From contig CAZSKP010000014.1 in assembly GCA_964607485.1 (NCBI GenBank), forward strand, positions 36,085 through 100,084: a DNA stretch of 64,000 bases. The letters run 5' to 3'. The translations under genes and the position numbers were made by a program. Below, piece by piece: positions 11,577-32,124 of this stretch (position 1 is the stretch's first letter; every line of letters begins with the position of its first letter). Under the pieces are notes generated by a model that did no database searches, had not been told where the DNA came from, and saw nothing but the letters and a program-made list of their open reading frames with translations. The stretch is from an uncultured bacterium. GTDB taxonomy: Bacteria; Abyssobacteria; SURF-5.

Positions 11577-11621
11577 CTGGGGGTCAAGAGGTCGCTGGTT
11601 CAAATCCAGTCGCCCCGACCA
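11577..11621 (+). repeat. att-type direct repeat: exact copy of the tRNA-Pro 3' 45 bp
   Basis: CTGGGGGTCAAGAGGTCGCTGGTTCAAATCCAGTCGCCCCGACCA identical to 7850-7894. Confidence 0.95.
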
Positions 11622-11641
11622 GACGTAAGTAATTGTGTTTT

Positions 11642-11682
11642 CAGCCACTTAGACACTGTTAATCTGAGTGGCTGTTTTCTTT
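11642..11682 (+). terminator. Rho-independent terminator-like hairpin after the second att copy
   Basis: CAGCCACTTAGA...TCTGAGTGGCTG followed by TTTTCTTT. Confidence 0.65.
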
Positions 11683-12029
11683 GCTCAAACTTGACTGTGT
11701 ACCAGGTGTGTACTAAGCTGTGTCTCAGAGGAAGGTCACGATGATTGCAAACCTTAACGAACTTCAATTCATATTTGCCGGGAGACCCACCCCCGGCACA
11801 ATAAGATTCTGTTGGCAACGTGTTCACGACAACACGGAGGTAATTAATTATGACCTTCATTCTAACTTAATGACTGGTACCGTCGGTAGGGGCAGGGCAG
11901 AGCCTCCGAAAGACTCAAGACGAAGTTGGTCAACTGAATTTTCGGTTCAATGAACATTACAAATTCTCGTCCTGAATCCACCCTTGTCATTTCTCGGTTT
12001 TCAAGCAGCCATTGCCCGTCACCCGTTTG

Positions 12030-13112
12030 TCAAGAAATTTCTCCGGCAATTCTGAGAAATAAACTTGCATCTTCGTCTTTATATCTTTCCCTTATAGACA
12101 GTATTTCATCCTTAATCGCCAAAAAGGCATCGACCACAGCGGGATCAAAATGGTTTCCCCGTCCTTCTTCGATAATGGCAAATGACTTTTCAAGGGAGAA
12201 AGGTTCCTTATAAGGCCGCTTGGAAGTCAGAGCGTCAAAAACATCTGCTATGGCTACGATTCGACCAACTCCTGGGATTTCCTTTCCTTTAAGACCTCTT
12301 GGATATCCACTTCCGTCCCATTTTTCATGGTGGGTAAGGGCGACCACTTCCCCTAGCCTAAGGTATCCCGCTTTCGCTCCTTCAAGAATCTTTCCTCCAA
12401 ATGTCGTATGTTGTTTCATGATTTCCCACTCATCCCGATCAAGCTTTCCCGGTTTTAGCAGTATCCGATCCGGAATGCCGAGCTTTCCAACATCATGCAT
12501 AGGGGCAGCATAGAGAATCCGTCGGATCACATCCTCACTCAGTCCCATTTGTCTGGCTACAGCCGCTGAGTAATGACTCATTCTCTTAATATGGGCACCC
12601 GTATCTTCGTCTTTATATTCGGCCGCACGGGTCAATCGGTAGATGGAATCAAGGGAGAATGCTTCGAGATTCTGAAAGGCCTGCCGCAGCTGTTTCGTTC
12701 GTTGTTCAACCTCTTCCTCAAGTAGTCGGTTCTGATTGTAAAGAGCAAGATGTGTGTGTACCCTCGCCAGAACAATTGGAGCGGACACTGGCTTGGTAAT
12801 ATAGTCTACTCCTCCGGCTTGAAAACCACGGCGTTCATCTTCCTGTCCTCCCATAGTTGTGACAAAAACAACAGGAATTCTTGAAGTCTCCGGGTTGGCC
12901 TTCAACCGCTTGCAGGTGTCATAACCATTCATCTCAGGCATCATGACGTCAAGGAGAATGATATCCGGTTTGACTTTTGTCGCCACGTCAAGTGCCTTCG
13001 CACCATCTTTGGCAAAAGACAGCTGATACTGGTCCTGCAATATTGCCCCCAGCAATTGCAGATTGTTTGGCTCATCATCCACCACGAGGACCTTCCATTT
13101 ATCGTTTTTCAT
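12030..13112 (-). CDS. Response regulator with HD-GYP cyclic-dinucleotide phosphodiesterase domain (RpfG family)
   Basis: REC LVVDD...LLDVMMP; MHDVGK, HHEKWDGSGYP, DVFDALTSKRPYK. Confidence 0.95.
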   Translation of the reverse strand: MKNDKWKVLVVDDEPNNLQLLGAILQDQYQLSFAKDGAKALDVATKVKPDIILLDVMMPEMNGYDTCKRLKANPETSRIPVVFVTTMGGQEDERRGFQAGGVDYITKPVSAPIVLARVHTHLALYNQNRLLEEEVEQRTKQLRQAFQNLEAFSLDSIYRLTRAAEYKDEDTGAHIKRMSHYSAAVARQMGLSEDVIRRILYAAPMHDVGKLGIPDRILLKPGKLDRDEWEIMKQHTTFGGKILEGAKAGYLRLGEVVALTHHEKWDGSGYPRGLKGKEIPGVGRIVAIADVFDALTSKRPYKEPFSLEKSFAIIEEGRGNHFDPAVVDAFLAIKDEILSIRERYKDEDASLFLRIAGEIS

Positions 13113-13113
13113 A

Positions 13114-17002: not shown

Positions 17003-18226
17003 CTAAGGCCCAATGTCACCAATTTCCTGTTCCCTTTCTTTGGCCCACTCAATTTGAGAATCCTTGATTCTGGCAGCGACTGTTTCTGCCGCCAAGCGAT
17101 GGCCTTCCGGCGACCAATGCGGGTCATTTTTCAGGAAGAGAGAAAAGGGTTCGGGATGACCACGGAAGATTGGGGTAAGATCTATGCATGGAACGTCCAG
17201 GGCGGCGCATACCTCCGCCAGACGTTTTGAGGGGCGGTCCCAGTCGATATCCTCTGACTCCGGATCCAACCCTGCATATCTGATACTGATGTCGAATATT
17301 TCCCTATCCGCATCCTCTTTTTTTGGAACGTAGAGCACGATTAAGCGTCCTCCACCTTCCATTGCCGATTCCTTCATGCGTGAAACCAAGAGACGCACCA
17401 CGTCCCAAGCAAGGTCCATCTCAGGAGAGGGAGGACCATAGATGTCCACTATCGAAAAATCCATTGCGTCTTTCTTTGCAGGCCCCACTTGAGAAGCATC
17501 ATCAGAAGGCTGATGCCTTGCCCTCAAAGCATTCGCCCGCCGTTGTAACTCGCGTTTGTCCTTCAGAATCCTCAGCCGGTACTCAATGAATCCGAATAGC
17601 CAGCTGTTATGACGAAACCACTGGGTTATCGGCGAACTGAGCACTTTCTTGACGGGTCGATTTCCTATCCGTAAGGTACCGTCCTCTGCAATCACGGCCA
17701 CGGGGCGCGTGCCCTGTTGGTCATCGAAGTTATCCCTGAGGTCGTTCCAGACAAAGGCAAGCATGGTCAGGTCGGGCTTATATCGCACGCCTTCCATCTG
17801 GAGACGCACTAATTCCTGCACAGTGCTATAACCGCTGACTCCCAGGTTGATGGTCTGAGTGTCAGGAATCAATTCCTGAAGAATCGTGGAAAATGTATCT
17901 TCGTTATCCACTCCGAATCCCCACATGAAACTGTCACCCAGCACAACGATGCGTCGGGTTCCGAGAGGCTTTGCGAAATCTTTCTCGCTGTCCCGGAGCC
18001 CCCGGCTGTTGTTAGCTACATGCACGTCGAATCCTCCCGGAAGAAAGAAGCGCGCATTAATATTGGGCAAACCCACCCACCCTGCATCAGGGTCGCTGCG
18101 GTGCAACTTCGCCGTCGAGATGACCATTATCCTGGGCTTCACAAGTCGTATGGCCCCTTCCAATATCAACAGGACAAGAATCGTGCTGATGACAACCAAC
18201 GAAAGACGTTCCACCCACTGTCTCAT
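17003..18226 (-). CDS. Membrane-anchored SGNH/GDSL hydrolase or acyltransferase-family protein
   Basis: N-terminal TM helix, NSRGLRD, VLGDSFMWG, NLGVSGYS, WND, DPHWSPEGH. Confidence 0.88.
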   Translation of the reverse strand: MRQWVERLSLVVISTILVLLILEGAIRLVKPRIMVISTAKLHRSDPDAGWVGLPNINARFFLPGGFDVHVANNSRGLRDSEKDFAKPLGTRRIVVLGDSFMWGFGVDNEDTFSTILQELIPDTQTINLGVSGYSTVQELVRLQMEGVRYKPDLTMLAFVWNDLRDNFDDQQGTRPVAVIAEDGTLRIGNRPVKKVLSSPITQWFRHNSWLFGFIEYRLRILKDKRELQRRANALRARHQPSDDASQVGPAKKDAMDFSIVDIYGPPSPEMDLAWDVVRLLVSRMKESAMEGGGRLIVLYVPKKEDADREIFDISIRYAGLDPESEDIDWDRPSKRLAEVCAALDVPCIDLTPIFRGHPEPFSLFLKNDPHWSPEGHRLAAETVAARIKDSQIEWAKEREQEIGDIGP

Positions 18227-18315
18227 AAGCTACGCTATCGTTCTTGTGTCGGTTAGTGGAAAGGATGTGCTTTTACCGATGATTATTATTGATATTACCG
18301 TCGCCATGAGCCTGC

Positions 18316-20175
18316 CTAATCCAACTCGAAGTCCTCTTTCCAATCGTGTGTTTCCTCCCACGTCGGCTGGGACGATTTGTCGAAGAGGTAATTCTCCATC
18401 ACGAGGTAATCCATTTCCGTCCGCATGAAACAACGGTAGGCTTCCTCGGGAGTGCACACGATGGGCTCGCCGCGCACATTAAAACTCGTATTGATCAGTA
18501 CCGGGCAGCCCGTGTGTTTCTTGAAGGTATGAACAAGTTCCCAATAGCGTTCGTTGGTCTCACGATTCACGGTCTGTATTCGCGCCGAGTAATCGATGTG
18601 TGTGACGGCCGGGATGTCGGAGCGGCGGTAATAGAGGCGCTCGAAAAGCGGCAGGTCGTGGTAACCATTCGGCAATGGGTTGAGGCGGTCGGCCCTTACC
18701 GGCGCGACGAGGAGCATGTACGGCGAAGGTCGGTCAAGCTCGAAATAGTCTGCGCAATCTTCTTCAAGCACGGAGGGCGCGAATGGCCGGAAACCCTCAC
18801 GATACTTGATCTTCAGGTTGAGTCGCTTTTGCATGTCGGGGTCTCGCGGGTCCCCGAGGATGCTACGATTGCCCAATGCCCTTGGGCCGTATTCCATGCG
18901 CCCCTGGAACCATCCGACAACGTTCCCTGCCGCCAAGAGCCGGGCTACTTCCTCACAGAGGAGTCGAAAATCCGGGTAATGGCGGTACGGCGCTTCGAAC
19001 CTTCGGGCAACGCGCACGATGTCGGCTGAGCCATACTCGGGCCCCAGCAAAGAGCCTTGCATTTCGTCATGTCCGGGTGTGGGACAGCGCTTCTCATCTT
19101 TCCATATGTGCCAGGCCGCCAGCGCAGCCCCCAATGCGCCGCCGGCGTCGCCCGCAGCCGGCTGAACCCACAGATTCTTGAAAAGCCCGCGGCGCAGCAG
19201 CTTCCCATTGGCGACACAGTTGAGCGTCACTCCTCCCGCGAGCGCGATATTATCCGAGCCAGTCAGTTCAAGTGCCGTGGATGCGAGTCGCAGAAAGATT
19301 TCCTCCGTCACGTGCTGTATTGCCAACGCGAGGTCCATGTAGGACTGAGTGAGTTGGCCATTCAAGGGTCGTGGCGGAATGCCAAACAGTGCCTCCCATC
19401 GGTCGTCGTGACACATGGTGAGACCGGTGGCATAGTTGAAGTACTCCATGTTCAACAGTATTGACCCGTCTTCGCGCAAGTCAACCAATTCGTCCAGAAT
19501 CTGTTGCCGATACCGTTTGGTCCGGTCACTCTCCGGGTTGCCATAGGGGGCGAGGCCCATGAGCTTATACTCGCCGCTGTTGACTCTGAAACCGCAGTAG
19601 TAAGTAAATGCAGAGTAAAGGAGCCCGAGAGAATGAGGAAAATGCAATTCCTTGAGAATCCGAATCTCTTTTCCGCTGCCCTTCCCGATAGTCGTCGTGG
19701 CCCACTCTCCTACCCCGTCGATTGTCAAGATTGCCGCTTCCTCAAACGGTGAAGGGAAAAAAGCACTGGCTGCGTGGGAAAGGTGGTGCTCGGGGAATAA
19801 TAGCGTTGGGTTGCCGTCACCCAGCTTGGCCAACTCCTTCTTCAAGAGCTGGCGCATGAGCAGTTTCTCCTTGATCCAAACGGGCATGGCCGAAAGGAAG
19901 CTCTGCAGCCCCTTTGGAGAAAAGGCGTGATAGGTTTCAAGCAGTCGTTCGAATTTGATGTAGGGCTTATCGTAGAACGCGACGGCGGTCAATTCGGCAG
20001 GAGTGACATTCCCCTCCGCGAGCACGTAAGCTGCCGCTCGAGTGGGAAATGAGGCATCGTACTTCTTCCTGCTGAAGCGCTCCTCCTGGGCTGCGGCTAT
20101 GATGTTGCCGTCAATGATCAATGCGGCAGCGCTGTCGTGATAGTAGGCCGATATGCCCAAAATTGCTGATCGCAT
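18316..20175 (-). CDS. O-carbamoyltransferase (NodU/CmcH/SxtI family)
   Basis: LGISAYYHDSAA, QEERFSRKK, HHLSHAASAF, DGVGE, EYKLMGLA, GPRALGNRSIL, LINTSFNVRGEPIV. Confidence 0.95.
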   Translation of the reverse strand: MRSAILGISAYYHDSAAALIIDGNIIAAAQEERFSRKKYDASFPTRAAAYVLAEGNVTPAELTAVAFYDKPYIKFERLLETYHAFSPKGLQSFLSAMPVWIKEKLLMRQLLKKELAKLGDGNPTLLFPEHHLSHAASAFFPSPFEEAAILTIDGVGEWATTTIGKGSGKEIRILKELHFPHSLGLLYSAFTYYCGFRVNSGEYKLMGLAPYGNPESDRTKRYRQQILDELVDLREDGSILLNMEYFNYATGLTMCHDDRWEALFGIPPRPLNGQLTQSYMDLALAIQHVTEEIFLRLASTALELTGSDNIALAGGVTLNCVANGKLLRRGLFKNLWVQPAAGDAGGALGAALAAWHIWKDEKRCPTPGHDEMQGSLLGPEYGSADIVRVARRFEAPYRHYPDFRLLCEEVARLLAAGNVVGWFQGRMEYGPRALGNRSILGDPRDPDMQKRLNLKIKYREGFRPFAPSVLEEDCADYFELDRPSPYMLLVAPVRADRLNPLPNGYHDLPLFERLYYRRSDIPAVTHIDYSARIQTVNRETNERYWELVHTFKKHTGCPVLINTSFNVRGEPIVCTPEEAYRCFMRTEMDYLVMENYLFDKSSQPTWEETHDWKEDFELD

Positions 20176-20316
20176 CAGCCACTTAGTTCTTCCCGCACGC
20201 TTCGAGCCGTGATTGCTTCCGGGCTGTTCCACATTGTTGCCGATCTTGAGGTACAAAAAGACAGGGGGATTTTCCTGGGGCAAGTACCACTGGTTCTCTA
20301 TAAGCGGAAGGCGGCA

Positions 20317-20466
20317 TCAGAATATTGTGTAAATAAAGGGGGCAATCGCCGAGCCACTGGTGAGGAGAATCAAGGCGCCGAACAGCAACAGACTCAGAAT
20401 GATCGGGAGCAACCAGAACTTCTTTCTGACTCTCAGATATCCCCACAAATCGCTCAGGAGCTCCAT
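20317..20466 (-). CDS. DUF5989 / SxtK-like small membrane protein (49 aa, absent from the ORF track)
   Basis: MELLSDLWGYLRVRKKFWLLPIILSLLLFGALILLTSGSAIAPFIYTIF; RKKxWLxP and APFIYT signature. Confidence 0.9.
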   Translation of the reverse strand: MELLSDLWGYLRVRKKFWLLPIILSLLLFGALILLTSGSAIAPFIYTIF

Positions 20467-20488
20467 AATCTTTTCCCACTTGGAGAAA

Positions 20489-20884
20489 CTAATAAGGTCG
20501 TTCGATATCTTCGGGTCCGTATCTATGGTCGCGCGTGGTAAAGACAGAGGTCTTTCCCTTTTTCCACTGATTCTTCCGCATAAGGTCGGAACCGCCCATC
20601 CGCCGCACCGCCCCCAGCGGAGTTACCACTCCGTAAAAGAGCACTGTCAGGACCACTCTTGAGACTATCGTACCCATCAGATGGGCAATACCAAACCAGA
20701 CTTTCGCCGGATAGAAGAAAAGGTTTGGCCACACCATATCAGCTACCAGGAGCAGCATCGCCAGAAGCAAGAACCTTGGATGCTCTCCGAAGTAAGCCAC
20801 GAAAAGGCAAATCAGGACTAATGCCATGCCTGTGTCTTTAGACTGGTCCCGACTTGTGATTTCGCTCGTGTTCCCTTTTCTCAT
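20489..20884 (-). CDS. SxtJ-family membrane protein
   Basis: KDTGMALVLI, WFGIAHLMG..VSRVVLT.LFY.VVTP.G, C-terminal DIERPY; adjacent to DUF5989 and carbamoyltransferase genes. Confidence 0.85.
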   Translation of the reverse strand: MRKGNTSEITSRDQSKDTGMALVLICLFVAYFGEHPRFLLLAMLLLVADMVWPNLFFYPAKVWFGIAHLMGTIVSRVVLTVLFYGVVTPLGAVRRMGGSDLMRKNQWKKGKTSVFTTRDHRYGPEDIERPY

Positions 20885-20926
20885 GAAAAGAAAAGTTTCC
20901 CCCCTTAGCCGAGGATTTGCGCGTAT

Positions 20927-20956
20927 ATTATATAGAGAGCTTCTGAAGCCTGTCAA
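20927..20956 (-). promoter_or_regulatory. Putative sigma-70 promoter for the sxtJ/K/I-like operon
   Basis: TTGACA-18 nt-TATAAT on the minus strand. Confidence 0.6.
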
Positions 20957-21215: not shown

Positions 21216-24200
21216 TCAGCTCGATTCATCCTGCGTCCTCGGGCTTGCATTCGAGCCGGGCGACAGCTCCTCTTTCCACTGCAGATACGTGCTGTAATAC
21301 TGCAGGATTTCCGATTCACATCCAGAGTCAACGGACGTTCCCTCAGGCTCGATGATCTCAATCGCTCCGGCGAATACCTCTCCACTGGAGCCGTTGATGC
21401 TGATGGCGTCCGTCTCCCCGAACGCAAGCGAATCGGCCTGCAAAATCCTCGCGTGCTCGTCGATGATCAGCCCCTGACACCCGGTGATGCACGGCTTGCC
21501 CATGCGACGAGAGTTGATTGCCGCGTGGGAGGTCATCCCGCCCTCTCGCGTGAGCACGCCCTTCGAGGATGCAATCCCGCCGATGTCCCTTGGAGTCGTG
21601 CGGTTCGCTACCAGGATAATGTCCTCGCCTGCCTGGGTTCGGATGATGGCGTCCTCACTGTTGAACGCGAGGTGGCCGGTGGCCACTCCCGGCGATGCGG
21701 GATTTCCCTTCGCAAGCAAATGTCTCGATGCGCTCGGGTCGAACATGGGGAGAAAAAGCTGTCTGAGGCCGGTCTCGTCGAGCCTCCCGACGGCTGTCTG
21801 CTGGTCAATGATACCTTCGTTGGCAAGCTCGACTGCAATTCTCAAAGCCGCCAAATCCGTCCGCTTCGCCGGCCGCGTCTGGAGCAGATAGAGCGCATTC
21901 CCCTCGACCGTGAACTCGATGTCTTGCACGTCGCGCAAGTGCGCCTCGAGCTTGCGTGCCACCGCCTCGAGCTCGCGAAACGTTTCCGGAAAACGATGTT
22001 CCAGCGAGAAAGAGGGGTCTGTGCCATCGCGTGCCGAGCTCAGCGGCAGCGGTTCGCCGTGGCCGCACACCAGCACCTCGCCTTGTGAACGCGGCAGATA
22101 CTCTCCGAAAATTTGGCGGTCTCCGGTTACGGGATTGCGCGAGAAGACTACTCCCGAGCACGATTCCGGGCAGAGGTTGCCAAACACCATCTGCTGGATG
22201 GTGGCCGCCGTGCAGAACTGGTGGGGGATGTTGAAAATCTGGCGGTAAGTGATGGCGCTGTCGCTCTGCCATGACAAGAATATCGCTCTGAGCGCCCCCA
22301 TGAGCTGTTCTCGCGGGTCCTGCGGGAGGGGAGCGCCGATGGCGTCCGCAACTCTCTTCAACAGGGTCTTCACCATCCGTTTCATCTCTTCCGCGGACGC
22401 GCACGCCGGATTACTCTCGGCAAGAGCCGGCTCGCGCGTGTCGGAATAGCCCATGACGGAGGAGGCGTACTTTGATATCAGCCTGAAATAGCACTCGTAC
22501 GCAAACAGAGAGTCACCGGTGATATGGGCCAAACCTTCGACTGTTTCGTCGTTAAGCCCAATATTCAAGACGGTGTCCAACATCCCCGGCATTGAAACGC
22601 ACGCGCCCGCCCGCACCGCCAGCAGAAGCGGCTTCTCCGGAGAGCCGAGCCTGCACCCGGTGATTTCTTCCAGCTCCTCGATGCTCTCGGACAGGAGCTT
22701 CTGGGTGCGGTTACACAAGACATGGCCGTCGGAGAAGAACATGTTGCACACTTTCGATGTGAGCGTAAACCCGGGAGGCACATTCAGCCCCAGCCGGGCC
22801 ATTTCGGCAAGGAATGCGCCTTTCTCCCCCAGTATCGGGTAATGCGCCACCTGCCCCTCGGCTGCTCCCGGCCGGAAGAAATAGGCGAGTTTGGCCGGGT
22901 CAACCTTTTTAGAGATTGCGTCCAGGTCGCGCCTGATTCGGGCCACCTTAATGGCGGAGATTTCCCTGATGGGCGGATGACGCACGCGCTTCATGAACTC
23001 GGCGATGCGCGCGCGAGAGAAATTGAGCAGCCTCAGCGTAAGCTCGGAAAGATGTTGCAGCGTCGTCTCGCGGAATAGGCCGTCCACGAACGCGCTCGCC
23101 GCCTCGTCGGCGTGCGGAATCTGGCGTGACGAAAGAATTTCGCGCGTGGTATCGTAATAGGTCTGAACGATCTTGTCCGTCGCCGCTCCTATCTCGGCGT
23201 TGATACGCTCGACGATCGAATAGACGGTATAGAAGTTGAGGTCGCTCGATTCCTTGAGCGCGAGGAGCTGCCTGCCGTAGTCTCTGATTTTCTTCGTGCA
23301 CTGTCCCTTGGCGCGCACGCTCAAAATCATCGAATGCATCACATCGATGGCCAGCGGAAGCGCCTCGACCGTGATGTCGGCCAGAATCACATTGCTCGCC
23401 TCGCCGTAGATAATGTAGCCGAGACGTTCGAGTGTCAGGTCGAGCCAGATGGCCTCCAGCGTTACCTCGATTGTCCGCGTTTGAACCAGCGGATTCTTGA
23501 TTGTGTCGCGCAGCGATATCCGCACCTCGCCGAGCATCAAGGCGGCGTTGAGGATGTCCCGCGCTCGCAGATACCCGATGAATCGCTCGAGCGATTCGAA
23601 CAGATGGGGGAAGAAGAGAGAAACCGCCTCGCGCCGCCATGAATCGATGAGGGCATGTATCTCCTCCGGCTCCTTTTTGTCTGCGCTTGTCAGCCCGGCC
23701 CTCAAGTTCTCGAAAAGTCGTTTGACATTGGGATTCTCTGCGTCGAGAATCGATTCTTCGAGCAGATTGACGAGAATCTCCACATTGGTTTCAATCAACG
23801 ATCTGTTCCGCTTCTCGATACTGCCGAGGAGATACCGAAGCTGGCTGTTGACCCGGGGCGATACAATCTGCGAAATGTTGCTGAGGAGTTGGTATATGTC
23901 TTCTACCCGGTCTTCGATGTTCCCCGGATGGGGCTCAAAAACATTTGCGAGTTCCCTCTCCAGCTCTTTCAACAAGCCGAGTATCGGCTGGAATTTGTCG
24001 GGGCGGTACTGAAACACTTTCTGATACTTGTTTATTGCGGTCAGAGGCTCGGAGTCGGCGTTCTCCACATAGGCGAGGAGCGCTCGCACGAGGTCGAGGT
24101 TGCGCGGAGAGAGCTTGCTGTGGATTTCTCCCCTGATATCCTCGGTGATGGGGGATGGGAACGCGTATTCTATCTCTTCGGCGAGCCCGCGCAACGCCCG

Positions 24201-24530
24201 AATCTCGTCTTGCGACGCGCCGAAGAAGGGCAGGCTCTTGACCAGTTGCCGCACGAGCAGATACATGTCGTCCGAGGACAGGTCTATGCACATCAGTTCT
24301 TCGAGCTTCTCGCGCATCTGCTTCGAGAGCGCAATGCTATCGGCCTTCTCGGCGAAGCCGCTGCCCCGGTAGCCGGCCAGGCTGCCCGTCTCAACGCGCA
24401 GATTCACGTTGAGCGCCTTGATGAGGTCGGTGCTGCCGAGCGGGTCGGAGACAATTCGCTCGATGCAGGCGAACACCTTCTCCCAGCTATTGATGGGCTC
24501 AAACTCTGATTCTTTGACCTCAACACTCAT
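21216..24530 (-). CDS. PPDK-derived dikinase: ~550-aa helical N-terminal region + ATP-grasp domain + swivelling phospho-His domain, no pyruvate-binding barrel
   Basis: GEKGAFLAEM, VPPGFT, AVRAG..SMPGMLDTVLN, QQMVFGN, QDIEFT, LQTR, GGMTSHAA; ends soon after the His domain; alternative start at 24560. Confidence 0.85.
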   Translation of the reverse strand: MSVEVKESEFEPINSWEKVFACIERIVSDPLGSTDLIKALNVNLRVETGSLAGYRGSGFAEKADSIALSKQMREKLEELMCIDLSSDDMYLLVRQLVKSLPFFGASQDEIRALRGLAEEIEYAFPSPITEDIRGEIHSKLSPRNLDLVRALLAYVENADSEPLTAINKYQKVFQYRPDKFQPILGLLKELERELANVFEPHPGNIEDRVEDIYQLLSNISQIVSPRVNSQLRYLLGSIEKRNRSLIETNVEILVNLLEESILDAENPNVKRLFENLRAGLTSADKKEPEEIHALIDSWRREAVSLFFPHLFESLERFIGYLRARDILNAALMLGEVRISLRDTIKNPLVQTRTIEVTLEAIWLDLTLERLGYIIYGEASNVILADITVEALPLAIDVMHSMILSVRAKGQCTKKIRDYGRQLLALKESSDLNFYTVYSIVERINAEIGAATDKIVQTYYDTTREILSSRQIPHADEAASAFVDGLFRETTLQHLSELTLRLLNFSRARIAEFMKRVRHPPIREISAIKVARIRRDLDAISKKVDPAKLAYFFRPGAAEGQVAHYPILGEKGAFLAEMARLGLNVPPGFTLTSKVCNMFFSDGHVLCNRTQKLLSESIEELEEITGCRLGSPEKPLLLAVRAGACVSMPGMLDTVLNIGLNDETVEGLAHITGDSLFAYECYFRLISKYASSVMGYSDTREPALAESNPACASAEEMKRMVKTLLKRVADAIGAPLPQDPREQLMGALRAIFLSWQSDSAITYRQIFNIPHQFCTAATIQQMVFGNLCPESCSGVVFSRNPVTGDRQIFGEYLPRSQGEVLVCGHGEPLPLSSARDGTDPSFSLEHRFPETFRELEAVARKLEAHLRDVQDIEFTVEGNALYLLQTRPAKRTDLAALRIAVELANEGIIDQQTAVGRLDETGLRQLFLPMFDPSASRHLLAKGNPASPGVATGHLAFNSEDAIIRTQAGEDIILVANRTTPRDIGGIASSKGVLTREGGMTSHAAINSRRMGKPCITGCQGLIIDEHARILQADSLAFGETDAISINGSSGEVFAGAIEIIEPEGTSVDSGCESEILQYYSTYLQWKEELSPGSNASPRTQDESS

Positions 24531-24549
24531 TCTGCCGTCAGATGCTCCC

Positions 24550-27500
24550 TCAGCGTTCATCCAGCCCGTCGAGCGCCGACAGCGTCCGCGTCGCCAGATA
24601 CTTCAAGGCCGCGCCGCCGCCCGTACACAAGGTAAACTTCTCCTTCGCCGCCTCGATTCCGCCCATGCGACGATTCACGGCGGCAACTCCGTCGCCGCCG
24701 ACCACGAGCTTTGCCTTGGCCGGGCACTGCGCGATGGCGTCCACAATCCAGTTTGTTCCCTCAGCGAATTGCTCCACTTCGTAGAGCCCGACGGTTCCGT
24801 TGTAGATGATCGTGCCTGCTTCAGCGAGAATGGCTTGAATCTCGCCCGCCGTCCTTGTGGCGGCGCCGTCGCTCGCGGCCGCAATATCAAACAGGTATGA
24901 ACCGAAAGGAATGCTTTCCGCATCAAGAACGCGCGAAGACACTCGCAGGAGCGGCCTGAACTTGTCGGGCAGCTCGAAGGCAACGTGCACGTCCTTGGGA
25001 ATCACGACCTTGACGTCGAATTCAGCCGCCAGCTCTATCAGCCTGTGGGCGGCCGCCACCTCGCGCTCGACCTCGAGCACGTCGGCACCCGAGAGCGAGT
25101 TGCCGGCCGACAGGCCGCTCGCAACGAGAAAGGCCGGGGATGCCGTCACAAATGTCTGAATGGCGCCATGGCGTATCATTGCTTCGACCGCGGGAATCTT
25201 TTCGCTTATCTTTACGCCGCTGACGAAAGCGACGACGGGCCGGCTGGCCTCGCGCAGTATTCCATCGAGAGTTTCAAGCTCGCTCCCCGTCAGCAAACCC
25301 AACACTTTATGCCCGTGGACGAGGTTCATCAGCGGCAGAAACGAGGCGTGAAGCCCGCGATGGGAGGCGCCGAACGCGCTGTTGACATAGTTAACCCGTC
25401 GCTGCGAGTCCGGGTCGAGATGGCCGAAGAGCGTGTCAAAAATGGCCTTCGCGAAATGCCGATTGCCCGACTCCTCTCCTTCGTGGAAACGCAGATTCTC
25501 GAGATAGAGAACCTGACCGGGCCCGAGGCCGCGCGCGAGTGACGCTGTCTGGGCATCGACGACGCCGGGCGCCATGAAGAAATCCCTCTCGGGAACAAGG
25601 ACATTCCGGTCCCGCAGTATTTCGGCGAACCGCTGGCCTGCAATCCTCAAACTGAACAGGTCAATGACTTGACCGTCCTCCGTCTGGAGGAACTGGAAAT
25701 CTCTCTTGCGCCCATTGTGCGACATCACAATGACTCTCGCGTTTCGCTTGATGAGGTGCGCAATGTCGTCCGCGCTTGCAAATATCCGATGGTCATCGAT
25801 GATTGAAGGTCTTATGGTGTTGGTGGCCGGGTCATAAAGCGGCTCCACGACGTTATGGTCAACCCGTACCATCCAGTACATGCCGTCGAACGCTTCGTCA
25901 GGCAGGTCGAGAAGCGAGGATTTCTTTGAATAGGGACTCTCGGATTTCGGGGGCACGTCGGGCACATAGGGAAATTGTGTGAAATCCTTCTGGTACGCCT
26001 TTTCCGCAGGCAGCATCACTTCTTCGAGGAATTCGACGTACATTTTCGACGGTCGCCACTCGTTTTCGTACCAGCCGATCAACTGGATGACGGTCATTGG
26101 CTCGCCGCTGGGAGCCACGAAATGGACGACCTCGACGTTCCTCTTACACAGCGTTACGCCCGCCTCCGCAAGCTCTCGCAGCAGTCTGATTTGCGTTGAG
26201 CGGTCGATTTCCTTGTCCCTGAGGAACTGAAATCTCTGATGGTCGCCCTCGCGGCATGCATCCTCCAGCACTTTGGCGGCAGCCTCGATATCATCAATCG
26301 TGTAATGTCCTCGGAGCACATAGGTGGGAGCCATGATGGAAACAGTTTCTATCGGGAACCGTATCGAGTACACCGGCGTGTGTGAAGTTCCCGCGGCGTC
26401 CACGAGAGCGGTGCTGGCGCTTGCGCCCGACGTCGTCTCGAAGATGTTTCCTGTCGCGTCGGTGCCGCGCCGTATGTCTTTCTTGTACTCTATCGGGTCG
26501 ATTATGTCGGGGCCGACGTGCTCGCCGGTGAGCGCGTGATAGGTCGGCCCGATTCCCTCGAGCACCATTGCGCCGGCAACCTCGTAGAATCCGTTCCAGT
26601 CAAACCGGCCCTCCTCGGCGCCGCGGTGCATTGCCACCTCGACGAGACGGTTCAGATTGGCCAGACATCCAGTCGTGCACGAGGCCGGGGAAAGAAAGTA
26701 ATGCTTCGCGGGATCATACTTGTGGTCATTGATGTGCCTTATGAAGGTGGCATCGCGCCACTCGTCTTCCTTGCTCGAGCCGGGCGCGGTGATCATTGCC
26801 CGCAGGGCGCCGGCGCGCCTGTGGCGGTTGACGCCGTCCAAGTTGTTGAAGCGGCCAGTCGCATCTATGGCGACGTGTACAGGCATCCCGGCCAGTATGA
26901 AGCATTTCCACGGATAGTTCGCCGGGTCTCTGAATACCGGGTGGCTGAACACGAGCGATCGCTTCCCGTCCAGCTCAATCCAATCACGACCGTATTGAAC
27001 GGTGCCCGGATAGCGACCCTGAACATAATCCTTCTCGTTCATCAGCTCGGCGAGGCGCTTGGCATCGGGGCCGCCCACCGCGATGACGCGCAGCGTGTCG
27101 CTCTTCGAGGCTATGCGGAACGTGCAGCTTCCCATGCGGCCGCCCGGAGCGTTGATGGTGATGTTGTACACTCCCGGCAGTGAGGGATACAGTATCGAGT
27201 TCGGCCTGCTGATGGTCTGCCATCGCTGTCGCTGTCCATCATACTGGTCGATCGACAGAAAGGTCACCCGGTCGAAGAGCTCCGTCTTCTCGTTGTAATC
27301 CAGGTGATGAACCCGGATGGTCGCCCGGAGCTTGTCGCCGTATTCGTATACATCATGTATCAGTATTTCCCAGTCGTATTCGCGGCTGAGCCGGAGCGCG
27401 TATTTGCGAAGCGCATCGTAGTATCGCCCCATCACATGATGCACATTCTCAAGCGACGCGGCGGTGAGCAGCGAAGTCGCGTACAGCTTGTGCCGGTTCT

Positions 27501-29838
27501 CGTGGAGCGCGACCATCGCGACAGCCTCTCCCGTCTCGTCACGCAAAACCTCCTGCAGGATGATAGGCTGCGACTCGAGGAAGAGCAGCCTCACAGCGTC
27601 CTCGGTCAATTCGCGGTCGGATACGCGGATCGTGCCCGTGCCCCCCATGGAGCCTGCGTACATGCGGGCTCGACGTTTCGTGGCGTGCGCCTGCGTTTTC
27701 TGTTCATACTTCCGGGCAAGACGCGGGATGTGACGCTTTGAAAAGTCGGTCTGTTGAGCGATGTCAAGCTTTGCCCAGTGACGGCTTGCCGCGGGCATAC
27801 CCGGCGTGAATGTGTCAGCCCTCTCTCCGAGCTCTCGCTTAAGAGAATGGCCGGCGATGAGGCGCAGCGCTTCCTCGACATCCGCCACAGCCTCGTCGAG
27901 GAAAAAGGCGATGCTCACCTGGGTGCCGGCATCGTTCTGGCTGACATAGACCTGGTTAGGGTCGAACATAATTCTGGAACTTCCGAAATTGAGATTCGAG
28001 GTCAACTGCACCCACCATTCGGGCAGGCTGAGCACTTCAAGTTCCTGCGCTTTCGCCTTGAAGAGCGAGATTATCCTCTCTCGCGAGAGCCTCGAATCGA
28101 CCACCGCGTTCAAGCGGAGAAGCTTGCCGCGCGGAATATTCGTCTTGAATTCGTTAGTGGCGAGCAGCTTTGTATCATCACCGGCCAGCCCCAGCATCCT
28201 CGCCACACCGGCGAAGCGCTTCGGATTCTTCTTATGGATGACCTGGTACACTCCGGCTACTCTGTATGTTGGCTGGACAACTGCCGGTTCGTCATGCTTC
28301 TCGACAATATCGGCTCCCAGCACAAAGATCTTCCCCATCTCGGAAAGGGCGGATATCCCGAGCGCATACGCAACTTCTTCGGCAGGCATGATGCCGAACG
28401 CGCTTCTTCCTTCAGGGTATTTCTCATTTAAGAGGGAGTGGACGGTCGCATCGTCACTTGTCTGTGTCCGAGCGACAACAAGTTGTGCCCCTTCTTTACG
28501 AATACGCTCCAGTAACTGCGGCTCAATCTTACGAGCGTGATCTTCGCTGATGAGGATATAGTCGATGCCCAAAGCCTTCCAGGGAAGGGACTCAAGAACG
28601 GCCGGCGCTTCGGTCAGGCTCCCGTGATACACACTGATGGCAGATTTCTGTTTGCCGATAGAAAGGAAGCCTTTCTCATCACCCTCGACCTCTTCATAGA
28701 TTCCAAGCTGCGAGTTGTACTTCAGCCACTGCATAATGTCTTTGGCTTTCTGCCCGACAAAGACCACTGCCTCCAGCTCATTGACATACGCGCTGCCGAT
28801 CCTGCGCAGAGCGGCGATAATGTTCTGGTTGTATCCGACAACCGCAATCCGGCGCGGTGCGTTTCCGGGTGAGAGATGCGCCAAGATACGGGAACGAATG
28901 GCCGCAAGATGTCCGGCCTCGAGCTCGAGGAAGGGCGATTCCGAAAGTCTGAACACATCGTAGAATTCATTCATCCCCGGAACAAACTTCGCTAACTCAT
29001 CCAGCGAGCGCTTCCTCTTTTCGGGATCCCTCTGAAAACGATCCAACTGAGCGAGAAGCCTGTCGATTTCGCGAACTTCCGTTACCGGCGCTATCCTCAT
29101 CCCTCGTTGCTCAATCAGTGCACGAACCGCGTCAAGCGAGGGATGGCCCACCTCCTCCATAACGTATGCTTCCTCGGAAAGTTCGGGGGTTTGCTTCTCG
29201 ACTCTTCTCGCCATCGCGGCGAGTGCACCCGACCGAGCCTGCATGTTAAACATGAACGAAGCTGCTTCCGACAGAATTCCTTCAGGCACGTGTCGATGAA
29301 CACTGGGACGATTGAAGTCGTCACAGAACTCGGCGAAAAGATGGTAAACGCCGTCTTCGCCGTCAAATATGTTCGTCCCGTATGCCGCCTTGAACTCCTC
29401 TGCAAGAGCTTCCTCCCCGATTCCTTCCCTCGCCATGAACTCCCGGAGCCCGGAGTGGAGAAGGGGAAAGAGTTGGAGGCGTCGCGCCATCCACTCGACA
29501 CCTTCGTGAACGAGCGTCCGGTTCAATACGCGGCGGCGACGATGCTGAAAGCTTTCGTTCGAGTTTTGAGCGGTTATCTCTGAGCGACAGATCCATTCGA
29601 GGAAGGAGTACGTGTCGAGGACATCGGAATAGATGATTCCCTGATTGTCGGCGAGTGTCGCTATAGGGAATTGTTCGAGGGCTGGTGCGAGATCTATGTC
29701 TTGAAGCGCCGGGTCGGCGCGCGCAGCTGTCTCCACAAGTCGATGAATGTAAGTTGAAGAGGGCCGGTGCAAAATTATCGGTATCTGAGAGAAGCCTTCG
29801 GGACGGGCGAGAAGCTCGGGTGGGCTTGGCAAAAGCAT
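24550..29838 (-). CDS. Giant fusion (~1762 aa): unknown N-domain + degenerate GAPDH-like domain + linker + divergent GAPDH + phosphoglycerate kinase
   Basis: Pseudo-GAPDH (~27850-28860): RIAVVG, LKYNSQLG, LPWKALGID. GAPDH (~26020-27175): INAPGGRMG, IDATG, ITAPG, ASCTTGCL, WYENEW. PGK (24550-~25920): VRVDHNV, SHNGR, LENLRF, AFGASHR, GGDG, TGGGA. ATG 29838 follows GAGGAG. Confidence 0.88.
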   Translation of the reverse strand: MLLPSPPELLARPEGFSQIPIILHRPSSTYIHRLVETAARADPALQDIDLAPALEQFPIATLADNQGIIYSDVLDTYSFLEWICRSEITAQNSNESFQHRRRRVLNRTLVHEGVEWMARRLQLFPLLHSGLREFMAREGIGEEALAEEFKAAYGTNIFDGEDGVYHLFAEFCDDFNRPSVHRHVPEGILSEAASFMFNMQARSGALAAMARRVEKQTPELSEEAYVMEEVGHPSLDAVRALIEQRGMRIAPVTEVREIDRLLAQLDRFQRDPEKRKRSLDELAKFVPGMNEFYDVFRLSESPFLELEAGHLAAIRSRILAHLSPGNAPRRIAVVGYNQNIIAALRRIGSAYVNELEAVVFVGQKAKDIMQWLKYNSQLGIYEEVEGDEKGFLSIGKQKSAISVYHGSLTEAPAVLESLPWKALGIDYILISEDHARKIEPQLLERIRKEGAQLVVARTQTSDDATVHSLLNEKYPEGRSAFGIMPAEEVAYALGISALSEMGKIFVLGADIVEKHDEPAVVQPTYRVAGVYQVIHKKNPKRFAGVARMLGLAGDDTKLLATNEFKTNIPRGKLLRLNAVVDSRLSRERIISLFKAKAQELEVLSLPEWWVQLTSNLNFGSSRIMFDPNQVYVSQNDAGTQVSIAFFLDEAVADVEEALRLIAGHSLKRELGERADTFTPGMPAASRHWAKLDIAQQTDFSKRHIPRLARKYEQKTQAHATKRRARMYAGSMGGTGTIRVSDRELTEDAVRLLFLESQPIILQEVLRDETGEAVAMVALHENRHKLYATSLLTAASLENVHHVMGRYYDALRKYALRLSREYDWEILIHDVYEYGDKLRATIRVHHLDYNEKTELFDRVTFLSIDQYDGQRQRWQTISRPNSILYPSLPGVYNITINAPGGRMGSCTFRIASKSDTLRVIAVGGPDAKRLAELMNEKDYVQGRYPGTVQYGRDWIELDGKRSLVFSHPVFRDPANYPWKCFILAGMPVHVAIDATGRFNNLDGVNRHRRAGALRAMITAPGSSKEDEWRDATFIRHINDHKYDPAKHYFLSPASCTTGCLANLNRLVEVAMHRGAEEGRFDWNGFYEVAGAMVLEGIGPTYHALTGEHVGPDIIDPIEYKKDIRRGTDATGNIFETTSGASASTALVDAAGTSHTPVYSIRFPIETVSIMAPTYVLRGHYTIDDIEAAAKVLEDACREGDHQRFQFLRDKEIDRSTQIRLLRELAEAGVTLCKRNVEVVHFVAPSGEPMTVIQLIGWYENEWRPSKMYVEFLEEVMLPAEKAYQKDFTQFPYVPDVPPKSESPYSKKSSLLDLPDEAFDGMYWMVRVDHNVVEPLYDPATNTIRPSIIDDHRIFASADDIAHLIKRNARVIVMSHNGRKRDFQFLQTEDGQVIDLFSLRIAGQRFAEILRDRNVLVPERDFFMAPGVVDAQTASLARGLGPGQVLYLENLRFHEGEESGNRHFAKAIFDTLFGHLDPDSQRRVNYVNSAFGASHRGLHASFLPLMNLVHGHKVLGLLTGSELETLDGILREASRPVVAFVSGVKISEKIPAVEAMIRHGAIQTFVTASPAFLVASGLSAGNSLSGADVLEVEREVAAAHRLIELAAEFDVKVVIPKDVHVAFELPDKFRPLLRVSSRVLDAESIPFGSYLFDIAAASDGAATRTAGEIQAILAEAGTIIYNGTVGLYEVEQFAEGTNWIVDAIAQCPAKAKLVVGGDGVAAVNRRMGGIEAAKEKFTLCTGGGAALKYLATRTLSALDGLDER

Positions 29839-29945
29839 AATCGCGCTCCTCAGATGTAACACGCCTATACTTTTGGCAGCACAATACTTATGCAATCCGC
29901 GTCACAACCTGAAAGGTGGGAGCGAACAGAATTCAGCCTACGGTA

Positions 29946-29974
29946 ATTTTACCCTCATTTCCGAGAATAGTCAA
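29946..29974 (-). promoter_or_regulatory. Putative sigma-70 promoter for the GAPDH-PGK fusion / dikinase operon
   Basis: TTGACT-17 nt-TAAAAT on the minus strand about 110 nt upstream of the start codon. Confidence 0.55.
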
Positions 29975-30124
29975 CGGCGGGCCGGCGACAGGCTTATGGT
30001 GTGGAGGGTACTTGACTTGTGAAGGGACTCCTCTCATTGTGGCACTGTTTTTCAGGAGGCAAGTCACCCCACTGAGGAGGGTAAACGTTGCACCTGTTGC
30101 TGGATTAGACTGAGCTCGTCACGA

Positions 30125-31504
30125 TTAGTAGAGCCCGTCGTTTCTCATGTCAACCAACGATGACTTCAGTGCGCCAATTATTGCATCGACATCGTCGGGC
30201 GTGTGCGCCGTTGACAGGAAGACGACGTGCATGTCAGGCATGAAAACGCCATGCCGCCGCATGTAGTAGGGGAGCAACTTCTCTGCTATCTCGTTGGCGT
30301 TCTGCTCCATCTGGCGCAAGTCTTGCGGGTCGTCTTCGAGGAATCTTGCGATCACCGCACTCTCCAATCCCATCAAGCAGAACGGCATGTTGTTCTCTCG
30401 GGCGTATTCGTTGACCTCTTTGGTAAGTCGTTCTCCCTGCTCTTTCAAATAGGGATATACGGCATCCTGATTCTCTTTGAGGTAACTCAGCAACGCGCTG
30501 CCCGCCGCGCATGAGACCATGTTTCCGGAATTGGTCCCGACGGCGTGGATCTTCGTGTTGAGGTCCTCCAGCGGGTTGCCCGTCGTAACGGCCACTTCCA
30601 TGATGTCGCGCCTGCCGACGACAGCGCCAAGCGGCAGCCCTCCGCCGACAATCTTGCCGAATGTCGCCAAATCGGGCTTTATGTCCCATCGATCCTGCGC
30701 GCCCCCGTAACACGCCCGGAATCCCGTCACCACTTCATCAAAGATCAGTATCACGTCCTGTTCCTTCGTGACTTCTCGCAGCTTTTTCAGGAAGTCGATG
30801 TTCAGCTTCGGCCAGCCGGGCCCCATGGGCTCCACGATAACGCAGGCAAGGTCTTTCGCATTCTCGCGTATGATATCGAAGGCGGCCTCATGGTCGCGCG
30901 GAAGCACAATCGTCGTTTCCAGGATATGACGGCATATGCCCGGCGTATCGAGGACACCCTCCGGTCTCTCTATCGGACCGCGGCGTTCGGTTCCTATGTT
31001 GGAGCTTACGCTGACATCCGGGTGGGTGCCATGATATCCGGCTTCAAATTTTGCGATTTTCTCTTTCCCCGAAAACGCGCGGGCTATCTTGATTGCCTGC
31101 ATCGTCGACTCAGTGCCGGAATTTGTAAACAGAGACCTCTCGGCGCATGCAACCGCGTCAATTATCAACTTTCCAAGCCTATGCTCCAACTCATGCCCGA
31201 CAACCACGCTGGTGCCCCGCGTAACCGCTTCCTGCACCGCTCTTACGACGACCTCCGGCGAATGGCCCAGGATGTGCGGCCCGTAGCTCATCGCGATGTC
31301 GATAAACTCGTTTCCGTCAAGGTCGATGAATCGACAGCCCTTCGCCTGCTTGATGATCATCGGGATGAAAGGAGAATTGCGCGGTCCCTCGGTGAAGAAC
31401 GAGATTGTCCCGTCCTCTTGCCTCTGTGTGTGGGCCTCCATGCATTTCTTCTGCTTGACCATCAACTCCTGGATGATGGGAAGCTCCAGTACTTCTTTCA
31501 TCAT
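30125..31504 (-). CDS. Class III PLP aminotransferase, glutamate-1-semialdehyde aminomutase-like paralog
   Basis: DLDGNEFID, GPHILGH, NSGTE, LIFDEVVTGFR, PDLATFGKIVGGGLP. Confidence 0.88.
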   Translation of the reverse strand: MMKEVLELPIIQELMVKQKKCMEAHTQRQEDGTISFFTEGPRNSPFIPMIIKQAKGCRFIDLDGNEFIDIAMSYGPHILGHSPEVVVRAVQEAVTRGTSVVVGHELEHRLGKLIIDAVACAERSLFTNSGTESTMQAIKIARAFSGKEKIAKFEAGYHGTHPDVSVSSNIGTERRGPIERPEGVLDTPGICRHILETTIVLPRDHEAAFDIIRENAKDLACVIVEPMGPGWPKLNIDFLKKLREVTKEQDVILIFDEVVTGFRACYGGAQDRWDIKPDLATFGKIVGGGLPLGAVVGRRDIMEVAVTTGNPLEDLNTKIHAVGTNSGNMVSCAAGSALLSYLKENQDAVYPYLKEQGERLTKEVNEYARENNMPFCLMGLESAVIARFLEDDPQDLRQMEQNANEIAEKLLPYYMRRHGVFMPDMHVVFLSTAHTPDDVDAIIGALKSSLVDMRNDGLY

Positions 31505-31518
31505 GGCAGTATCCTCCC

Positions 31519-32124
31519 CTAATCCTTTGTTTTCTCGTCCAGGTAGAGCCGGACGAAGTTCTTCGTCAGCCTATGCATTCTTTCAAGGGATATATTCTTG
31601 TCATCAATGTGTTTCTGCAAGGATACCCCGTCCTGAATTGCCACGAGCATACTTGCGAGGTCGTGTGCCTCCTTGGATGACAGCCCCGCCGTCTTGCCGG
31701 TTTCCGTAAGCAGTCGAAGTACTGCGGCTCGATATCGACGGAACAATCTGGTCATGCTTTTTTGGACCCTTGGATTGCGTTGGGCTTCGACGATACAACT
31801 ATAGTAGAAGCCGGGAGGTTCAGTGTTATTCATTTCAGGGCTGAACAAAAATTCGAGACCTTTTTCGAAACGCTTTTCCGGGTCCTCGTATTCACCCATC
31901 TGGGCGGAGTAAGAGTGCATGAGGTCATCTACGAGTTTTTCGACCAATTCCTCAATCATATCGTCTCTGTCTTTGAAATAATGATAGAGAATGCTGGGTT
32001 GAACCCCCGCCTCCTTTGCTATCGTCTTGATGGGGCTATTCTGCAGGCCGTGTTTTGAGATGCACCGACGCAGCGCGTCCAAAATCTGGGCTCTTCGCTC
32101 ATCCGCCAGGCTCTTCCTGCCCAT
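31519..32124 (-). CDS. TetR/AcrR-family regulator (BetI-like C-terminus)
   Basis: RRAQILDA...IAKEAGVQPSILYHYFKDRD HTH. Confidence 0.92.
   Translation of the reverse strand: MGRKSLADERRAQILDALRRCISKHGLQNSPIKTIAKEAGVQPSILYHYFKDRDDMIEELVEKLVDDLMHSYSAQMGEYEDPEKRFEKGLEFLFSPEMNNTEPPGFYYSCIVEAQRNPRVQKSMTRLFRRYRAAVLRLLTETGKTAGLSSKEAHDLASMLVAIQDGVSLQKHIDDKNISLERMHRLTKNFVRLYLDEKTKD

Follow-up and report, generated by a model that had tools for sequence, protein, structure and literature searches.

A giant gene coding for dead GAPDH-fold, divergent GAPDH and divergent PGK domains, followed by a PPDK-half partner gene, in a bacterium related to 'Ca. Abyssobacteria'

Covalent fusions of two glycolytic enzymes have been described in several lineages. 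The available passages of the sources present the Thermotoga PGK-TIM protein (phosphoglycerate kinase joined to triosephosphate isomerase; fus, NF010569) and the stramenopile mitochondrial TPI-GAPDH (PMC3527533, PMC7729029) as two-domain proteins of no more than 70 kDa that have TIM as a partner and carry neither pseudo-enzyme nor unassigned domains. A review of PGK lists PGK-TIM and other PGK fusions, with no covalent fusion of PGK to glyceraldehyde-3-phosphate dehydrogenase (GAPDH) among its passages at hand (PMC7729029). In giant viruses, a fused G3P (GAPDH) plus PGK gene was found in 16 metagenome-assembled genomes and described, in the part of the report available, as 'not reported in cellular lineages before' (Moniruzzaman et al. 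2020, PMC7136201). Here we have analyzed a stretch of 64,000 nucleotides (hereafter the window; contig CAZSKP010000014.1, positions 36,085 to 100,084, assembly GCA_964607485.1) from an uncultured bacterium of the lineage Abyssobacteria; SURF-5. A single gene of this window, at 24550..29838 on the minus strand, codes for a helical N-domain, a dead GAPDH-fold domain, an alpha/beta domain that we call link2, a divergent GAPDH and a divergent PGK, in this order. Like the viral gene as described in the passages at hand (PMC7136201), it has GAPDH and then PGK in one frame, i.e., two adjacent glycolytic steps, but it occurs in a bacterium and has three further conserved parts, namely the helical N-domain, the dead GAPDH and link2, the two proteins being compared by domain order only. 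What it shares with the Thermotoga and stramenopile proteins is the covalent fusion of glycolytic enzymes.

A different precedent is provided by the giant proteins of Omnitrophota, in which many sugar-metabolism enzyme domains are found on one polypeptide. The passages available of one preprint mention TIM, GPI, FBPase, PGM/PMM, aldolase and 'pyruvate-diphosphate kinase' domains (West-Roberts et al. 2023, bioRxiv 10.1101/2023.11.21.568195), and those of another report PGK and TIM domains in a protein of 71,949 aa (2026 preprint, bioRxiv 10.64898/2026.06.04.730025). In the main text of the former the words GAPDH and phosphoglycerate have 0 occurrences, and a tandem of dead plus live GAPDH is not described in the passages at hand of either. 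Compared with the Omnitrophota-type giants (a label that comes from the names of three long proteins bearing pyruvate phosphate dikinase (PPDK) domains, P0076, P0079 and P0083, and not from the taxa of the distant giants themselves), the window protein is compact and leaderless, has a domain part called N1 instead of TIM, and leaves the PPDK half to a separate gene. Our literature search found no bacterial GAPDH-PGK fusion, no dead-plus-live GAPDH tandem and no two-gene unit of this kind, although the supplements of the bioRxiv papers, which lay outside the search, may list such domains. The genome paper on 'Ca. Abyssubacteria' treats glycolysis in general terms only, with no mention of GAPDH, PGK, dikinase or fusion. 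The principle of fusion is known, while the literature searched contains neither this architecture nor this host group nor this two-gene unit. A first-pass annotation, made from the letters of the sequence alone, had stated that the architecture was not recognised; this stands for the full architecture, for which no match was found in the literature searched, and not for the GAPDH-PGK fusion itself, which is in print for giant viruses in the passages at hand (PMC7136201).

The features of the gene, of its upstream side and of the partner gene that follows it are given below. P0001 is the 1781-aa translation (TTG start) and P0002 the 1762-aa form; residue numbers from family scans refer to the 1781-aa translation.

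24550..29838, minus strand: giant fusion gene (P0002, 1762 aa, stop codon included), from the listing of open reading frames (ORFs) and the database form
28864..29781, minus strand: helical N-domain, from the structure model and domain hidden Markov models (HMMs)
29194-29781, minus strand: N1 part of the N-domain, found only in the subfamily of the window protein and in P0031/P0032
28864-29193, minus strand: N2 part of the N-domain, common to all giant relatives
27844..28863, minus strand: dead GAPDH-fold domain (psG), residues 345-684 of P0001, from fold searches and hhalign
27604..27843, minus strand: link1, a low-confidence stretch and then a long helix, from the models
27184..27603, minus strand: link2, alpha/beta domain, from a confident model (pLDDT 89)
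25999..27183, minus strand: divergent (live) GAPDH domain, residues 905-1299 of P0001, from Pfam, NCBIfam and alignment
24553..25941, minus strand: divergent PGK domain, from Pfam and alignment with the genome's own PGK
21216..24560, minus strand: partner gene P0014, 1114 aa, from family scans (database form P0042 starts at ATG 24530, 1104 aa)
29846..29850, minus strand: Shine-Dalgarno-like AGGAG, 7 nt 5' of ATG 29838, by direct reading
29946..29974, minus strand: promoter-like TTGACT-17-TAAAAT, 10/12 consensus positions, a consensus match only

The giant gene lies in a single open frame, 24550..29895 on the minus strand, that the ORF listing counts as 1781 aa from a TTG at 29895. The 100% identical database form P0002 begins at the ATG at 29838, and because AGGAG also precedes this codon by 7 nt, we take 24550-29838 as the extent of the gene and ATG 29838 as its likely start. 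An independently assembled Logan contig (run X1, possibly the source sample) matches positions 24000-30200 over their whole length as a single piece, with 0 differences and free of indels. Fragments of three more runs of the same study are identical except for one base outside the giant gene, again without indels or joints, and the sequences from other assemblies (P0003-P0010, and P0013 at 47% identity) have the same domain order and no stops. The giant fusion gene is confirmed as genuine and is no assembly artefact. That the long frame could be an assembly chimera, or a read-through of separate genes, is suggested by one NCBI/ENA assembly in which the gene is split into P0012 (1035 aa) and P0037 (699 aa) on one contig of 157244 bases. 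However, the Logan version in the same cluster is unbroken (P0038, 1758 aa), and the split is probably a sequencing frameshift. With nine other full-length forms known, conservation that runs unbroken over the domain joints and the run X1 contig matching the whole stretch, we give this explanation practically no credence. The single frame, its ribosome binding site and the intact forms in other assemblies bear out the uninterrupted ORF described in the first-pass annotation, the contiguity of which is seen in run X1, and all 11 of the motif strings quoted there were found, each once and at its place (e.g., ASCTTGC at 26665-26685).

Pfam and NCBIfam scans gave no match on residues 1-900 of P0001. 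We modelled residues 1-886 of P0002 with AlphaFold2, from an alignment of 24 rows and with no templates, and obtained a mean pLDDT (predicted local distance difference test) of 75 and a pTM (predicted template modelling score) of 0.59. When 48,161 representative chains were searched with VIA-align, the best match was the GAPDH chain 7bex_A (Z 24.7, root mean square deviation 3.7, 295 residues aligned), over model residues 327-664, that is 27847-28860 of the window; aspartate-semialdehyde and N-acetyl-glutamyl-phosphate reductases (ASADH/ArgC) came next in the list with Z 17-18. Foldseek against PDB gave a list whose top consisted entirely of GAPDH chains, the best being 6fzi_B (E 7e-18, target TM 0.70, 354 columns, 19% identity). 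The same relationship appears in the comparison of profiles by hhalign, in which 15 dead-domain sequences, distant relatives included, were compared with 14 live domains and the GAPDH of the same genome: the local alignment had a probability of 98.1% (E 1.2e-13, 256 columns) and the global one of 99.0% (E 2e-17, 299 columns), with controls against PGK at E 0.27-0.8. The comparison became significant only once the distant relatives were added, since the 10 close sequences alone gave E 0.024, and when the dead domain was used to search PDB by sequence profile, no match came up (best E 1.6, PsbU). In the distant P0028, the dead domain is still visible to Pfam Gp_dh_N (E 5.5e-6), and the live-domain HMM matches the dead domains of P0022, P0026 and P0040 (E 1e-4 to 3e-4).

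In the dead domain GYNQNI replaces GFGRIG, there is no GxGxxG loop, and no catalytic Cys is found at the aligned active-site stretch. Judged from the model and the profile comparison, the first GAPDH-like copy is a pseudo-enzyme with the GAPDH fold. This is what had been proposed for it in the first-pass annotation, and the region on which the proposal was staked (27850-28860) falls within the part of the model that matches GAPDH structures. Among members with an overall identity of 65-72%, the identity of this domain is 67%. By domain, identity is highest in link2 (86%), followed by the live GAPDH (83%), the PGK (73%), the dead GAPDH (67%) and the N-domain (about 51%). The conservation of the dead domain and of link2, the most conserved domain of the giant protein, indicates that both are under selection.

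Residues 1-325 are mostly helical in the 886-residue model and were scarcely probed by the fold searches. The C. glutamicum GAPDH 8jb1_B, of 468 aa, is informative here, with its residues 22-468 aligned by VIA to model residues 218-665, that is N2 plus the dead domain, at Z 24.4. Because the alignment takes in both, the modelled N2 helices may correspond to the N-terminal extension of this long-form GAPDH, a likeness from which we infer the role of NCBIfam NF006139 here. The dead domain differs from the long-form chain in having neither the Cys nor the Gly-rich loop, and the identity between them is 11%. No signal was obtained when the N-domain and the linker were each compared with the other domains by hhalign. 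Modelled separately, residues 686-886 form a long helix and then an alpha/beta domain (pLDDT 89, pTM 0.83), the latter being link2. Its model had no Foldseek match at E <= 0.001, and the best VIA match, the GNAT-like chain 3dns_B (95 residues aligned), had a Z of 5.8, for which reason, the noise level of the tool being 7-8, we give no fold to link2. Look-ups in the ESM Atlas with link2 and with the N-domain of the partner protein gave scores of 0.84 at most. In the relative P0020 (2680 aa), the link2 HMM matches two more stretches past the live GAPDH, at residues 2120-2401, and link2-like modules may be repeated in some giants. The anatomy given in the first-pass annotation, a dead GAPDH, a live GAPDH and a PGK in one chain, was right as far as it went, but had passed over about 550 conserved residues of the N-domain and link2.

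The second GAPDH copy is recognised by sequence families at reduced scores. Pfam Gp_dh_N (PF00044) matches residues 912-1018 with E 2e-11 and 44.3 bits (cut-off 31.7), Gp_dh_C (PF02800) matches 1131-1215 below its cut-off (E 5e-4, 20.2 versus 24.4 bits), and the NCBIfam model of GAPDH-I, TIGR01534, extends over 919-1283 with E 3e-33 and 115 bits against a cut-off of 367. As far as these scans go, the live domain is a divergent relative of GAPDH and no equivalog. The Cys of SCTT and the conserved His have catalytic roles in GAPDH, and the active-site roles of these residues are textbook knowledge. Aligned with the genome's own GAPDH, ASCTTGC stands opposite ASCTTNC and TYHALT opposite TVHAYT. 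The live domain thus keeps the SCTT Cys and the TYHALT His, together with the Thr three residues later, KDIRR, IRFP and WYENEW, and none of the 10 members aligned deviates at the catalytic Cys and His or at the substrate residues. Changes are found on the dinucleotide side: GFGRIG is replaced by GGRMG, which changes the length by one residue, there are several insertions, and AVGG has Gly where the canonical GAPDH of the same genome (AVND) has the Asp of VAVND. The Asp of AVND is the residue that usually ties GAPDH to NAD.

The PGK domain is much easier to recognise, with a match to Pfam PGK (PF00162) at 1336-1768 (E 1e-58, 199.4 bits versus a cut-off of 27) and one to NF010569, the NCBIfam model of the Thermotoga PGK-TIM fus, at E 2e-52. 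It keeps the basic patch for 3-phosphoglycerate (3-PG) of the genome's own PGK (RVDHNV, DDHRI, SHNGR, ENLRF and SHR) and the Lys residues of the GAKVSDK motif (here VKISEK). The nucleotide side is altered, with TASP for GGGM, NGT for NGP and GGDGV for GGGDT. In sequence, the 3-PG and phosphate sites of the live GAPDH and PGK look intact. The changes in the GAPDH dinucleotide loop and on the nucleotide side of PGK imply that the cofactor and the phosphoryl partner may differ from the textbook ones.

A word-based search retrieved 12 proteins, of 1020-2199 aa and 47-89% identical, among which nine are full-length with the same domain order at 65-89% identity and a tenth, P0013, stands at 47%. P0013 (2199 aa) has some 350 extra N-terminal residues (1-350) that are absent from the window protein. 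Within the phylum, the giant gene is found in three of the 11 genomes (G000, G009 and G010). In the genome of the window, another contig carries canonical gap and pgk as adjacent genes, and there are also a full-length PPDK and further PPDK_N paralogues, so that the giant gene is an extra one; the separate gap and pgk genes that the first-pass annotation had suggested looking for are both there. Contig C2 of G000 has, at about 148284-155519 (L025-L027), three frames of some 880 aa on the minus strand over about 7 kb, each matching PPDK_N at E 1e-80 or better.

More distant relatives were sought with the N-terminal part. When 1.84 billion representatives were searched exhaustively with HMMER, the N-terminal 860-aa profile matched only 22 proteins at E <= 0.001, P0019-P0032 being found at E 1e-12 to 1e-68. 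In these distant giants (1661-2680 aa) the alignment covers the end of the N-domain together with the dead GAPDH and the linker, and our domain HMMs recover in them the same core order of N2, dead GAPDH, link2 and live GAPDH. Their architectures, according to Pfam, NCBIfam and our own domain HMMs, are listed here, core standing for N2, dead GAPDH and link2, and PFK for phosphofructokinase.

P0023, 1842 aa: PFK, core, GAPDH
P0020 and P0024, 2680 and 2243 aa: class II aldolase, TIM, core, GAPDH
P0025, 1661 aa: TIM, core, GAPDH
P0022, P0026 and P0028, 2067-2169 aa: TIM, core, GAPDH, PGK
P0021, 2559 aa: TIM, core, GAPDH, PGK, enolase

Active-site motifs are kept in many of them. SCTTGC is present in eight of the 11 distant giants examined, and is lacking in P0019 and P0030, which end before the live domain, and in P0031 and P0032; the TIM motif YEPRWAIGTG occurs in three distant giants and YEPRYAIGTG in a fourth. 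The fusion of relatives to PFK, class II aldolase, TIM, PGK and enolase indicates that the family deals in true glycolytic intermediates. A leader resembling a signal peptide is found in 11 of the 12 distant giants whose starts were checked (P0019-P0032; P0022 is the exception) and also in P0013, and none is seen in P0002, P0004 and P0009, the subfamily of the window being leaderless. The window protein ends with its PGK domain, without the C-terminal end piece common to Omnitrophota-type giants. By its sequence, it belongs, as a member without a leader, to a rare family of giant glycolytic polyproteins that have in common a core of N2, dead GAPDH, link2 and live GAPDH. This wider family, with its dead-plus-live GAPDH core, had escaped the first-pass annotation.

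The gene directly downstream of the giant one is the only neighbor that recurs. The stop codon of the giant gene is at 24550-24552, and the partner starts either at 24560, with overlap, or at 24530, 19 nt downstream, as in P0042. Residues 557-1076 of the partner match positions 2-514 of the 865 of PPDK TIGR01828 with 537 bits (cut-off 843), and comprise the ATP-grasp domain PPDK_N and the PEP-utilizers phospho-His swivel domain (GGMTSHAA). PEP-utilizers_C, the domain for phosphoenolpyruvate (PEP) and pyruvate, is absent from the partner in family scans. The partner has therefore the ATP-grasp/phospho-His half in common with PPDK and differs from it in that the PEP domain is missing and there is instead an N-domain of about 550 aa, for which no family match was found and a PDB sequence-profile search gave a best E of 0.66. 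Gene context covers four giant loci, one from the scan of genome contigs and three from that of metagenomes. The partner lies directly downstream of the giant gene in all four, these being the loci with a visible downstream side (the window, L005, L018 and L020), and no other neighbor is conserved in the other three. Giant and partner proteins are also found on contigs of matching size (113440, 157244, 88333 and 11002 bases), and the source names in the partner family are Poribacteria, Lindowbacteria, Hydrogenedentota and Abyssubacteria. Among the long PPDK-bearing proteins P0064-P0084 the HMM of the partner N-domain had no match; P0074 fuses PGK to a full PPDK, and in P0080 and P0082 enolase is fused to a PPDK half without the PEP domain, fusions that speak for a functional link between giant and partner. 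This conserved PPDK-half gene had been missed in the first-pass annotation, which had the anatomy of the giant gene right.

A dCache histidine kinase and two single-domain response regulators are found directly upstream of a lone partner gene in G004 (L034, G004:C45, 3945-8813), and the same set is found upstream of the giant gene in G010 (L019, G010:C6, 3171-5875). This suggests that the giant gene has been gained or lost inside a conserved locus, possibly one under two-component control. Other genes around the pair, all on the minus strand, are particular to this window (a promoter-like site is listed with them):

30125-31504, minus strand: class III aminotransferase, like glutamate-1-semialdehyde aminomutase and the guanitoxin transaminase GntE, below cut-offs
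20956-20927, minus strand: promoter-like site, perfect 12/12
20489-20956, minus strand: SxtJ-like small protein, downstream of the partner, in this window only
18316-20283, minus strand: carbamoyltransferase with NodU/CmcH-type N and C domains, in this window only
17003-18226, minus strand: SGNH/AlgX-like hydrolase, in this window only

Upstream of the aminotransferase there is a TetR regulator (the pair lies within 30125-32124, minus strand). The SxtJ-like, carbamoyltransferase and SGNH genes (17003-20956) look like a separate set for the modification of a glycan or metabolite.

The reading that we favor, to which we give slightly more belief than doubt, is that the giant protein is a five-part cytoplasmic multi-enzyme, a fused module for glyceraldehyde-3-phosphate, 1,3-bisphosphoglycerate (1,3-BPG) and 3-PG. 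It would act beside the canonical gap and pgk, together with the operonic ATP-grasp/phospho-His protein. The live GAPDH and the PGK would interconvert glyceraldehyde-3-phosphate and 3-phosphoglycerate, the labile 1,3-BPG being handed between the tethered sites. The dead copy would replace the second identical subunit that GAPDH normally needs and give its interface, link2 and the N-domain would hold or regulate the assembly, and the PPDK-half partner might give or take phosphoryl groups. Channelling, and a dead copy serving as internal oligomer partner, had already been proposed in the first-pass annotation. Regarding the direction of the reaction, the sequence leans toward NADP(H) and the upward, gluconeogenic sense, because the Asp that ties GAPDH to NAD is lost and the neighbor is of PPDK type; the PFK fusion of one relative (P0023) leans the opposite way. 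Several facts weigh against such a multi-enzyme. The scores of the live GAPDH are far under curated cut-offs (115 versus 367 for TIGR01534, 20.2 versus 24.4 for Gp_dh_C), and both the dinucleotide loop and the nucleotide side of PGK are altered. The giant gene is dispensable, being present in only three of the 11 genomes of the phylum, and the partner, having no PEP/pyruvate domain, cannot act as an ordinary PPDK. Besides, the partner N-domain is found in six of the 11 genomes, and in G004, G007 and G008 no giant gene adjoins it and none was found elsewhere in the genome, so the pairing is not obligatory from the partner's side.

Some of these facts can be read otherwise. The altered cofactor loop and nucleotide side would also fit an enzyme of biosynthesis that reduces another carboxylate, the PGK-like domain making an acyl phosphate, the GAPDH-like one reducing it to the aldehyde and an aminotransferase aminating the product. 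This parallels the logic of Asp-kinase/ASADH or ArgB/ArgC, and the class III aminotransferase upstream (30125-31504) and the carbamoyltransferase, SxtJ-like and SGNH genes downstream would be in keeping with it. However, those neighbors are not shared by the other three loci, between the aminotransferase and the giant gene there is a promoter-like site, all the 3-PG-binding motifs and the GAPDH phosphate-site residues are conserved, and the relatives are fused to TIM, aldolase, PFK and enolase, so that we hold this pathway to be improbable. The idea of a different substrate, raised in the first-pass annotation, finds little support for the last two of these reasons. We regard as equally doubtful a mainly non-catalytic role, in which domains of enzyme origin would make up a scaffold, sensor or regulator that responds to bound triose phosphates or nucleotides by controlling either the PPDK-like partner or a signalling path. 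It is certain that one GAPDH copy is dead, there are degenerate domains in relatives (the PGK of P0026 and P0028, the GAPDH of P0031 and P0032), all scores are far under equivalog cut-offs, and the dCache kinase with its two response regulators stands upstream in G010 and before the lone partner in G004. Against this, the 10 aligned members do not vary at the catalytic Cys and His or in the substrate residues, and the live GAPDH and PGK have the identities (83% and 73%) that working enzymes would show.

The multi-enzyme that we prefer has a more far-reaching variant, which seems to us less probable still than either of these alternatives. The swivelling phospho-His domain of the partner would trade phosphate directly with the altered nucleotide side of PGK, or with another site of the giant protein, and the whole would be an energy-coupling machine in which triose-phosphate oxidation is coupled to AMP + PPi -> ATP + Pi or, in reverse, 3-PG is activated at the expense of two anhydride bonds. 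A rough estimate from textbook free energies places this reaction near equilibrium. If true, it would be a dikinase-type substrate-level phosphorylation working on 1,3-BPG instead of PEP, the dead GAPDH and link2 would hold the energy-coupling assembly together, and the leaderless form would be the cytoplasmic counterpart of the leader-bearing glycolytic megaproteins of Omnitrophota.

The GAPDH-PGK fusion, presented in 2020 as unique to giant viruses in the passages at hand (PMC7136201), is found here in free-living bacteria related to 'Ca. Abyssobacteria'. The chain adds to it a conserved pseudo-enzyme copy and link2, and linked to the gene is a PPDK from which the PEP domain has been lost. 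The compact system of two genes (1762 + 1104 aa) provides a link to the Omnitrophota giants, too large for direct study, and being tractable it could make the channelling of 1,3-BPG from GAPDH to PGK testable. It could also show the role of pseudo-GAPDH domains and the target of a PPDK ATP-grasp/phospho-His unit without a PEP site.

Two other places deserve a brief description. At L020, two HTH genes (one MqsA-like) and a fragment of a phage integrase lie at 10857-13219, a few kb downstream of the giant/partner pair, a mobile-element context that could explain the patchy distribution of the giant gene; upstream, at 2-547, is the start of a further PPDK_N gene, which is divergently oriented. 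In the window itself, at 12030-16083 on the minus strand, a hybrid histidine kinase (Tll0287-like sensor, PAS, receiver and Hpt domains) adjoins a protein with receiver and HD domains.

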